A stretch of DNA of 64,000 nucleotides from the NCBI RefSeq assembly GCF_058153355.1, contig NZ_CM177019.1. One strand, given 5' to 3'. A program made the translations under genes and the position numbers. Under the pieces are notes generated by a model that ran no database searches, was not told the DNA's origin, and saw nothing but the letters and a program-made list of their open reading frames with translations. This document shows, in pieces, positions 61,917 to 64,000 of this stretch. Position 1 is the stretch's first letter. Every line of letters starts with the position of its first letter.

Positions 61917-62861
61917 ATGGGTCTTGATAATATAGGTTCTGTTGTCAATCGCTTCTCTGGTTGGCCATCAAATGATCCTCTAAAAACAGATAACGAATCA
62001 ATGACATCACCCGTGACTGTGCAGGTAATAAAGTTGATTGCCGCCATCCTTGACCCACATCGGATAGTCGTTGGTATCGATACACTTTACACAACGCAGC
62101 GCAAAACATTTACCTCAGAGGGTCAACAGCTCATTGAATCAGCATTGCAAACACTTCATGTGATGAATTTAAATAACCTGGAAACAAATCTCGATGAGGA
62201 AGGTCACTATCTGGCTTTTGGATATAACGTTGACACTCCTGACAGAATAACCGTTTCTGCTTATAATGAAAAAAAACCTTTCTGTTATGGCCAATGTCTT
62301 TTAATACAGGATGAAGAACCAGATTTATTTAACCTGGTAAAAATTAAAACCTTTGAAGCCAGGCATAATTATGTTTCTAAATTGATGAGCGATCCGGAAT
62401 TTATGTTTAAATTCAGTTATAGCGCCCAACAAAATAGATTAGAACCTCATCTTCTGGTTCCCACTTATTTCCCTCTGAAAACAAACCAACCGGTTACGCT
62501 AGAGGATGTACTGATACTTTATCGTTTCTTTAAAATGAATGGCGATTTTAATATATTAACATCAGATGAATACATGAGTATCATGACACCTCTGATGAAG
62601 TGTGAGCGTAGTGTCCACGACCATAACAGGTATGTGACGGGCAAAGATGCTCTTCTTCTGGACAATCCTCCGTCTGGTAACCAGATATATTTCCATATTT
62701 CCCCTGACGAATCAGCAACACTTGTCCTTTATTTTTCAGACAATAACCTTGAATCCTTCGTCTTTGAAAATGATATTCCGAGCCAGTATCGACATTTCAA
62801 AATGTTTACCAATTTAGCACTAGTTATTGATCAGTTAACCGACGCCAATCAAATACTTTAA
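61917..62861 (+). CDS. Hypothetical protein, 314 aa (accessory, AT-rich)
   Basis: ORF replacing the mngB side of the K-12 cydA upstream region; no motif recognised. Confidence 0.5.
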   Translation: MGLDNIGSVVNRFSGWPSNDPLKTDNESMTSPVTVQVIKLIAAILDPHRIVVGIDTLYTTQRKTFTSEGQQLIESALQTLHVMNLNNLETNLDEEGHYLAFGYNVDTPDRITVSAYNEKKPFCYGQCLLIQDEEPDLFNLVKIKTFEARHNYVSKLMSDPEFMFKFSYSAQQNRLEPHLLVPTYFPLKTNQPVTLEDVLILYRFFKMNGDFNILTSDEYMSIMTPLMKCERSVHDHNRYVTGKDALLLDNPPSGNQIYFHISPDESATLVLYFSDNNLESFVFENDIPSQYRHFKMFTNLALVIDQLTDANQIL

Positions 62862-62942
62862 TTTTCTATATATCCCCTATGGTAAATATTACTAAACAAT
62901 ACCTGGGGATTAATTTTTATTACTCACGGAAAGATTTAAATA

Positions 62943-63365
62943 ATGATACCATCTCAGATTTCTTTCAATACTCTTCCTGTCAATGCAACATACGCTTCAG
63001 AGACAACAGTTGACACACAAAAATTCTCTGACATCCTCTACTCTGCGGGGTGTTCCCTAAAGGATCTGGCTTATCTGAGCAGATGTCTGGCATCAATACA
63101 TCCGACTATCGCCAAAAACATTTATGAAACAGAAAATCTCAGCGTTCAAAAATTACTGCATATTGATTGCCGTAGTACAAATGAAATCAAGATAAATATC
63201 TTTTTTGGTCAGCAACGAGAAGGATTAATTGAAATTAGTTCTGACACAGTCATTTTTTCGATACTGTCTTCATTGATTGACTCAGCTATTTCTGAACATC
63301 GACATCAAATCACCGTTAACGATTCAAATAATTCTGAACTATTTTATGAGGATTATACTGATTAA
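62943..63365 (+). CDS. Hypothetical protein, 140 aa (accessory, AT-rich)
   Basis: ORF with plausible spacing after the 314-aa ORF. Confidence 0.45.
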   Translation: MIPSQISFNTLPVNATYASETTVDTQKFSDILYSAGCSLKDLAYLSRCLASIHPTIAKNIYETENLSVQKLLHIDCRSTNEIKINIFFGQQREGLIEISSDTVIFSILSSLIDSAISEHRHQITVNDSNNSELFYEDYTD

Positions 63366-63909
63366 ATCCACTCTGTGCGAACCTGTCCTGCATTTATGCC
63401 AGAAGTATTAGAATCTTTGCTTAACGTTACTCATACAGTAGCACCTTCATGTACTTCTCTTTTTTACGAAAAATCAAAAGAGCTAACAAAGGTCATTCTT
63501 CGCATGGATCATTAATTATTTGTTATTTTCAACATTATTTTTACATTAAGCATATATGAATTGCAGTGAAATTCGACTTAACTTTTATGAAATGCATTTA
63601 CTCATGGCTAAAAAATCTCCCCAAAATGCAAATTAGAAGTTGATCACAATTATCTCAATACATCAAATCAAGTTAATTTTAAAAATTTAACATTCATGAC
63701 ATTAGTTGACGTAACACGCTGAATTAAAATGAGAATTTAAAAACACACTTTAAACAATCATTTCCCGAAAGACATTTTGAAAATAGATCAATTGCAACAT
63801 TACGGTCAGATAAAGACACTCCTCTGATATTAAACCTGTGCCGTTATGAACGGCCATAAATACGACGTGTGTAACTTAATTTACTCTCTGTCTTACAAAG
63901 GATTACCCA

Positions 63910-64000
63910 TGAAGAAAGCAACACTTGTGATTGGCGTTATTGGCGCGGACTGCCATGCAGTAGGCAATAAAGTTCTGGACCGCGTTTTTAGCAACCATGA
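63910..64000 (+). CDS. Glutamate mutase S (B12-binding) subunit-like protein, 5' fragment truncated by window end
   Basis: Hand translation [31 protein letters not shown]; the GxxGxDxHxxG pattern is the cobalamin-binding signature of methylaspartate mutase small subunits. Confidence 0.65.

Follow-up and report, generated by a model that had tools for sequence, protein, structure and literature searches.

The 3' end of a 64,000-nucleotide (nt) stretch of contig NZ_CM177019.1 (NCBI RefSeq assembly GCF_058153355.1), here called the window and always meant at its full length, carries two AT-rich open reading frames (ORFs), ORF1 and ORF2, between cydA and a gene, glmS, that is truncated by the window end at position 64000. 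We conclude with high confidence that the known methylaspartate operon begins at the end of the window and that ORF1-ORF2 is a separate, dispensable orphan cassette, restricted to Escherichia and presumably silenced by nucleoid proteins. The three elements concerned are the following.

61917 to 62861, plus strand: ORF1, 314 amino acids (aa), an acidic (isoelectric point [pI], 4.9), soluble protein; ATG start with GAGG 8 nt upstream
62943 to 63365, plus strand: ORF2, 140 aa, an acidic (pI 4.7), soluble protein; ATG start with a plausible Shine-Dalgarno sequence, as for ORF1
63909 to 64000, plus strand: 5' end of glmS, which encodes methylaspartate/glutamate mutase subunit S and opens the operon; identified by its NCBIfam match and its identity to relatives

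A first-pass annotation made from the sequence had described a 314-aa and a 140-aa ORF in AT-rich DNA, a gap of about 550 nt, and a gene whose N terminus bore the cobalamin-binding signature of a methylaspartate mutase small subunit. Both ORFs lie at the positions given above, the gap measures 543 nt with the next gene starting at 63909, and the signature is genuine. The ATG at 63909 is preceded by AGGA with a 7-nt spacing, and the 30 codons in the window stay open to the window end. The fragment contains the DxHxxG cobalamin-binding motif (D14-C-H16-A-V-G19) and matched solely two NCBIfam models, NF002612 and TIGR01501, both methylaspartate mutase subunit S equivalogs (E values of 5.6e-12 and 8.2e-12, respectively). 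Its score of 45 bits was under the respective cutoffs of 110 and 135.8 because the fragment is truncated; the full-length GlmS of R32_14_1F scored 249.5 bits against NF002612 and 244.6 bits against TIGR01501. The 92 nt of glmS in the window were 100% identical to annotated glmS of R32_14_1F, Escherichia sp. MOD1-EC7003, and the contig L004. By these sequence criteria, the partial ORF at 63909 is the 5' end of glmS.

The loci compared included those of R32_14_1F (L001), O157:H7 (L002), Escherichia albertii (L003) and its type strain (L006), Escherichia sp. MOD1-EC7003 (L007), Escherichia coli K-12 (L010), Salmonella enterica (L012), two Enterobacteriaceae (L013 and L014), and Pseudescherichia vulneris (L016). 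R32_14_1F was the nearest relative of the window (98.8% identity over 12.8 kb). In R32_14_1F and O157:H7, the gene order is glmS-glmL-glmE-mal-AtuA-DUF4387-symporter-fumD-cobO, followed by a divergent LysR gene. The symporter is of the dicarboxylate/amino acid (glutamate/dicarboxylate) type, fumD encodes a class I fumarase/mesaconase, and cobO encodes a cobalamin adenosyltransferase. The R32_14_1F proteins scored above the equivalog cutoffs (score/cutoff: GlmL, 508.7/475; GlmE, 864.6/390; methylaspartate ammonia-lyase, 543.9/286; class I fumarase, 1279.6/1060; CobA, 245.4/168). The LysR-family protein is GcvA-like (221 bits) and is a candidate regulator of the island. Genes for glmE, glmL, and methylaspartate ammonia-lyase accompanied glmS in L001, L002, L007, and L011 to L016. 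The suggestion of a methylaspartate-pathway island was thus borne out by the identity of glmS and by the pathway genes downstream in R32_14_1F and O157:H7; the glmE, methylaspartate ammonia-lyase, and mesaconase genes to be sought there are present in the closest relatives.

A cluster of this kind has been published for O157:H7, with FumD (ECs0757) characterized as a mesaconase, and its text gives a prevalence of 26.5% in E. coli and further occurrences in Salmonella, Citrobacter, Klebsiella, E. fergusonii, and other genera (PMC4682846). With our operon probe, 1,135 of 5,426 complete E. coli genomes (21%) were positive. On its sequence and on the gene content of relatives, the operon beginning in the window is this already known enterobacterial cluster. 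In this pathway, the B12-dependent mutase GlmS/GlmE converts glutamate to (2S,3S)-3-methylaspartate, with GlmL reactivating the mutase; methylaspartate ammonia-lyase then forms mesaconate, and the class I fumarase FumD forms (S)-citramalate. The island lets some E. coli strains (nearly all O157:H7) and other enteric bacteria turn glutamate into mesaconate/citramalate with B12, and confirming it in the window genome adds nothing new. Two of its genes deserve a separate remark: the AtuA-family (DUF1446) and DUF4387 genes downstream of mal (21355-23039 in L001) were kept within the operon in every genus examined. Their proteins had no NCBIfam match at E values of ≤1e-10, and the GC content of the DUF4387 gene was 0.38, versus 0.55 for its neighbors. 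DUF1446 is flagged as being of unknown function in the published description (PMC4682846).

The evidence that separates ORF1-ORF2 from this operon is comparative. In S. enterica, the two Enterobacteriaceae loci L013 and L014, and P. vulneris, cydA is followed by a spacer of 0.85 to 1.2 kb and then by glmS, with no ORF1 or ORF2; the only gene called in these spacers is a 29-aa ORF in L013 and L014. Citrobacter koseri has mngR directly before glmS and likewise has neither ORF. No DNA or protein similarity to ORF1 or ORF2 was detected in the spacers of the four loci L011 to L014, and window and Salmonella DNA could be aligned in two stretches only, the approximately 415 nt just upstream of cydA and the part that starts at about position 63752. 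ORF1 and ORF2 were therefore not conserved with the cluster across genera. Within Escherichia, the two units also decay independently. In E. albertii, which has no glm genes, the cydA-sucD interval contains ORF1, whose frame is intact in L003 and shifted in the type strain, along with a remnant of 44 nt from ORF2. Escherichia sp. MOD1-EC7003 has an intact operon, but one enterobacterial repetitive intergenic consensus (ERIC) element interrupts its ORF1, and a second stands in place of the 5' two-thirds of ORF2. These ERIC elements, also named intergenic repeat units (IRUs), lie at 10349-10469 and approximately 11092-11215 of L007 in opposite orientations; they match the ERIC1R primer exactly and ERIC2 with one mismatch. 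Base composition differed as well, with GC contents of 0.36 to 0.38 for ORF1 and ORF2, 0.31 to 0.34 for their spacers, and 0.49 to 0.55 for most glm genes.

The operon also appears to have an upstream region of its own, located in the spacer that separates it from ORF2.

63366 to 63908, no strand assigned: AT-rich spacer of 543 nt between ORF2 and glmS; GC content of 0.31 (measured in the near-identical L001)
63777 to 63821, plus strand: candidate glm operator/promoter, from invariant columns of alignment A4

The approximately 385 nt of this spacer next to ORF2 are Escherichia specific, and the approximately 160 nt next to glmS form the upstream region of the glm operon and are conserved; it is not until about position 63752 that the sequences of Salmonella, Citrobacter, and other Enterobacteriaceae become similar again. 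Alignment A4 covers six genera and takes in Escherichia, C. koseri, Salmonella, and another Enterobacteriaceae locus. In it, the sequence TTGAAAATAGATCAATTGC within 63777-63821 holds an invariant inverted repeat, TTGA-N7-TCAA, that overlaps a -35-like TTGCAA, which is followed by a 17-nt spacer and then by an invariant GACACT(C). From this conservation, we take 63777-63821 to be a putative operator and promoter for the glm operon, which would then have its own cross-genus conserved promoter region approximately 90 to 130 nt upstream of glmS. We do not claim the inverted repeat as an FNR or CRP site; its half-site spacing is one base longer than that of the consensus for these regulators. The repeat offers a handle on the regulation of a poorly understood operon. 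An Rfam scan of 61000-64000 gave no match at E values of ≤1 (no cobalamin riboswitch, other riboswitch, or small RNA). Promoter and terminator scans performed no better than they did on shuffled sequences, and the 543-nt spacer yielded no terminator-like site.

Given these observations (i.e., the absence of the ORFs from other genera, their independent decay, the GC contrast, and the operon's own conserved block), the near-perfect co-occurrence of ORFs and operon in E. coli is best read as physical linkage within a 13-kb block. As judged from gene content across the genomes compared, the cassette is dispensable and the pathway does not require it; the distribution of the cassette implies that it was already present before E. 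coli and E. albertii diverged. Because several other genera have the operon in the same position, its place beside cydA is, on the same comparison, ancient and not an O157-type acquisition.

ORF1 is clearly a maintained coding sequence under relaxed purifying selection. The gene has a GC content of 0.38 and encodes no transmembrane segment. A word-indexed search of 5.8e9 proteins returned only Escherichia/Shigella copies (87 to 96% identity, plus one at 62%) and fragments, and a HMMER profile search of 1.84e9 cluster representatives returned only fragments of the ORF1 protein itself, with no distant homolog. Among GTDB species genomes, ORF1 was found only in E. albertii, Escherichia sp. MOD1-EC7003, and a pair of contigs from metagenome-assembled genomes that appear to be misbinned. 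These two contigs, L004 (labeled Collinsella sp.) and L005 (labeled Citrobacter sp.), encode ORF1 proteins 89 to 90% identical to that of the window, and their DNA is 91 to 95% identical over the rest of the ORF1-ORF2-glmS region and 99 to 100% identical over the 92 nt at the start of glmS. Both are almost certainly E. coli contigs that were binned wrongly. The E. albertii ortholog (L003) was 62% identical to ORF1 in protein and 76% identical in DNA sequence, and their 940-nt alignment was free of gaps, compared with 10 gaps in 805 nt of the intergenic region beside it. The frame remained open after 226 substitutions, and random placement of these substitutions gave 0 of 20,000 stop-free sequences (P < 5e-5). 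ORF1 is more than a chance ORF because it is open and gap free against this ortholog and no neutral simulation was stop free. Substitutions were most numerous at third codon positions (70, 54, and 102 at the first, second, and third positions, respectively; synonymous divergence [dS], approximately 0.55), and the ratio of nonsynonymous to synonymous divergence (dN/dS) was 0.26 to 0.57, compared with <0.04 for cydA.

For ORF2, the evidence for coding status is weaker than for ORF1. Its GC content is 0.36, and its product has no hydrophobic segment. The search of 5.8e9 proteins returned homologs with 80 to 95% identity along with truncated or frameshifted copies; every named match was from E. 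coli or Shigella, and none lay outside Escherichia/Shigella. The dN/dS ratio was 0.14 to 0.34 in most pairs and 0.86 in the single closest pair. With only 27 substitutions, the neutral open-frame test had no power (P = 0.50). Both ORFs were intact and annotated in all E. coli genomes among those listed, apart from one partial match (H70). ORF2 is probably cotranscribed with ORF1, from which it is separated by an 81-nt spacer. A paralogous relationship between ORF2 and a domain of ORF1 was rejected (hhalign probability, 1.2%).

The first-pass annotation had assigned no function to either ORF, and the searches that we ran, which returned only Escherichia/Shigella copies, left both without a family. 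Neither protein had a Pfam or NCBIfam domain at E values of ≤0.1, and no DNA-binding domain (helix-turn-helix or similar) was found in either. No family of the PADLOC-DB 2.0 defense models was matched at E values of ≤1. ORF1 had no PHROG match, ORF2 had a single nonsignificant one (E value, 0.11), and neither had a sequence match in PDB. A tblastn search of phages and plasmids with both proteins gave no phage match and no true mobile-element copy; the three "plasmid" matches were records of 0.73 to 4.9 Mb of the nonmobilizable class and looked chromosomal. No mobility genes or att sites flank the cassette, and a repeat search around it revealed no convincing insertion scars. The sole candidate scar is a 15-nt direct repeat at 61546-61560 and 63645-63659 (CACAATTATTACAAT and CACAATTATCTCAAT, 87% identical), the copies of which sit approximately 15 nt and 100 nt inside the borders of the Escherichia-specific segment (approximately 61531-63751); the pair is probably a chance occurrence in such AT-rich DNA.

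We propose that ORF1-ORF2 is transcribed as a separate unit and that, as with other E. coli DNA that is AT rich and looks foreign, nucleoid proteins of the H-NS type probably silence it. The two genes would constitute an accessory pair of conditional use, with expression confined to a niche that has not yet been sampled; the small acidic ORF2 protein may partner with ORF1 or bind to it. In published RNA sequencing (RNA-seq) data for EDL933 covering 11 conditions, counts for ORF1 and ORF2 were near zero.

Several observations weigh against this interpretation. Because the window ends at position 64000, the downstream genes of the window genome are deduced from those of relatives. The whole glm operon was equally silent in the RNA-seq data, so the two units cannot be told apart by their low expression. 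H-NS silencing is deduced solely from AT richness and low RNA-seq counts, and the high-affinity H-NS motif was not enriched over the region. Within E. coli, the ORFs and the operon are contiguous in at least 1,134 genomes, which alone would fit a functional link. The enteropathogenic E. coli (EPEC) strain E2348/69 keeps ORF1, ORF2, and glmS intact despite the loss of the rest of the operon, which was removed by ISEc13, with mngR and an mngA remnant remaining. Finally, AlphaFold2 models built on shallow alignments reached mean predicted local distance difference test (pLDDT) scores of only 43.4 for ORF1 and 41.5 for ORF2 and were unusable for fold-based ideas.

We weighed four alternatives, scoring each independently. 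The first, which we consider unlikely, is that ORF1 and/or ORF2 are functionless relics, i.e., decaying or spurious ORFs in an AT-rich spacer kept by linkage; this estimate overlaps the favored picture of a dispensable orphan cassette and mainly concerns ORF2. Near-zero transcription in all 11 conditions and dN/dS ratios of 0.3 to 0.57, versus <0.04 in the neighboring genes, are what a relic would be expected to show, and so are the frameshift in ORF1 of the E. albertii type strain, the disruption of both ORFs in Escherichia sp. MOD1-EC7003, and the frameshifted or truncated ORF2 copies, one of them in Shigella. The neutral test for ORF2 does not speak against decay. For ORF1, however, a gap-free frame of 314 codons across a dS of approximately 0.55, with substitutions concentrated at third codon positions and none of the 20,000 neutral simulations matching it, argues against decay. 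The dN/dS ratio was below 1 for both ORFs in all pairs with measurable dS (the closest ORF2 pair, at 0.86, included), and both ORFs have plausible Shine-Dalgarno sequences and stay intact in the listed E. coli genomes.

The second alternative, that ORF1-ORF2 is a functional pair born or acquired in the Escherichia lineage and belonging to an undescribed fold or family, we judge rather improbable. The pair may consist of de novo genes that arose in an expanded AT-rich cydA-glmS spacer, or it may be a new host interaction or antagonism pair in which a larger protein has a small acidic partner and which is expressed solely in a niche not yet sampled. It stays under consideration because ORF1 is under purifying selection, has no homolog in the 1.84e9 representatives, and corresponds to a homologous spacer that is noncoding in other genera.

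A third proposal, that the two genes encode an effector-chaperone pair of type III secretion (the chaperone being the small acidic protein) or a toxin-immunity pair, in either case from an undescribed family, appears very unlikely. It draws on the juxtaposition of a larger protein and a 140-aa protein with a pI of 4.7, on the fraction of Ser, Thr, Asn, Pro, and Gln over the first 30 residues (0.40 in ORF1 and 0.50 in ORF2), and on the retention of an AT-rich, foreign-looking cassette in the attaching-effacing lineages E. albertii, O157:H7, and E2348/69. The predicted model of ORF2 has the order alpha/three-strand/alpha, and EspG appears among the Foldseek rows. The N-terminal fractions, however, are only modestly above those of the whole proteins (0.31 and 0.34) and are expected in AT-rich genes, and no PDB effector, chaperone, or toxin was matched by sequence, nor was any found in PADLOC. 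The Foldseek search of PDB with the ORF1 model returned nothing below an E value of 0.04, a result limited by the low confidence of the model (pLDDT, 43), and the EspG rows were rejected as noise from that query (E values of ≥0.07; probability, ≤0.10; template modeling score, approximately 0.12; root mean square deviation, approximately 21 Å). The cassette also occurs in about a fifth of E. coli genomes from many sources, and many of the lineages that carry it presumably lack the type III system of the locus of enterocyte effacement (LEE).

The remaining possibility, the first of two that the first-pass annotation had offered, is that ORF1 and ORF2 specifically serve the methylaspartate island as its regulator or accessory pair (for example, in sensing, assembly, or the handling of B12); we regard it as the least probable of all, since their contiguity with glmS in at least 1,134 of the 1,135 operon-carrying E. 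coli genomes, their shared strand, and the lack of a terminator-like site before glmS are outweighed by operons without the ORFs in other genera (C. koseri included), by ORF1 without the operon in E. albertii and the operon with both ORFs destroyed in Escherichia sp. MOD1-EC7003, by a LysR regulator and the GlmL reactivase that already fill such roles, by the absence of any domain, by the very different base composition, and by a glmS promoter-like block that is conserved independently. The other option that it had offered, an unrelated insertion, is the one we favor.

The left flank of this variable locus is the conserved core gene cydA, which is separated from ORF1 by a region that serves both divergent genes.

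59544 to 61115, minus strand: cydA (cytochrome bd-I subunit I), an ORF annotated as cydA in L001, L002, and L010
61116 to 61916, no strand assigned: AT-rich intergenic region of 801 nt, common to the divergent cydA and ORF1; GC content of 0.27 to 0.39

The nucleotide identity of cydA was 97.9 to 98.9% to E. coli and 94.7% to E. albertii. From cydA, the GC content falls from approximately 0.52 to values of 0.27 to 0.44 over 61200-63900. The intergenic region as a whole was 84.8% identical to that of E. albertii. Its first 415 nt or so are the cydAB upstream region, 78.8% identical to Salmonella (L012) over positions 1 to 415; the rest is Escherichia specific, and beyond about 415 nt from cydA, the alignment of 61116-61916 showed no similarity to L012.

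A comparison of the cydAB regulatory region (61113-61492) with L010, L002, L003, and L012 showed that E. coli has two alleles that have diverged deeply. Over the first 380 nt, the K-12 type and the window type are only 78 to 82% identical, and farther on they are unrelated; the window type is shared at 93 to 99.5% identity among O157:H7, E2348/69, Escherichia sp. MOD1-EC7003, and even E. albertii. The K-12-type cydA promoter region may have arrived together with mngRAB. A search with the 2.9-kb segment 61100-64000 found it (≥80% coverage) in 1,134 of the 5,426 complete E. coli genomes, with R32_14_1F as the best match at 97.8% identity and O157:H7 at approximately 93.7%; 3,734 records fell in the 80 to 90% identity band.

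The cydA-sucD interval is a hypervariable locus (L001, L002, L003, and L008 to L010). K-12 carries mngR-mngA-mngB, with mngB beside cydA, as the first-pass annotation had it; the distance between them is 846 nt. O157:H7 has ORF1-ORF2 and the glm island; in R32_14_1F, the island is followed by hut genes and not by sucD. FDAARGOS_1255 has a pseudogene for a tetratricopeptide repeat (TPR) protein, and E2348/69 has the ISEc13-truncated island together with mngR. In E. albertii, ORF1 is accompanied by a gene for a 258-aa protein with an N-terminal hydrophobic segment that looks like a putative outer membrane protein. The view that the island stands in place of K-12 mngB is correct in that the content of the locus differs, but the two are not strict allelic replacements, since E2348/69 combines the ORFs and glmS with part of mngRAB.

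Both ORFs are routinely annotated as hypothetical proteins, and the island is already known. Lying outside the pathway and with ORF1 measurably constrained, ORF1-ORF2 offers a clean, small case for the study of lineage-restricted genes.

Three known systems can be set beside this locus. The enterobacterial methylaspartate cluster, as published, starts with the gene seen here, lies at the same cydA-sucD site, and agrees in gene order and content with R32_14_1F and O157:H7. Its prevalence is similar (26.5% versus 21%), and the operon itself, of which the first 92 nt are visible in the window, shows no difference; the text of that paper and the legend of its Fig. 5 do not mention the two hypothetical genes upstream (PMC4682846). 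The clostridial MutS/GlmS proteins (C. tetanomorphum and C. cochlearium), with their B12-binding Rossmann-like domain, share with the window gene the DxHxxG base-off/His-on motif and the equivalog TIGR01501, but the window glmS is the enterobacterial ortholog. According to the published description, the enterobacterial clusters have the single-chain class I fumarase FumD in place of the two-subunit clostridial mesaconase and have no citramalate lyase genes (PMC4682846). ORF1-ORF2 itself most resembles the AT-rich orphan accessory genes of E. coli, a class usually attributed to H-NS-silenced xenogeneic DNA, in its low GC content, its lack of homologs outside the genus, its raised dN/dS ratios, its sporadic pseudogenization, and its near-zero transcription in standard conditions. 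Unlike that class, it is flanked by neither mobility genes nor att sites and lacks relatives on phages or plasmids, and it is old, predating the split of E. coli and E. albertii and sitting in a conserved spacer between operons.

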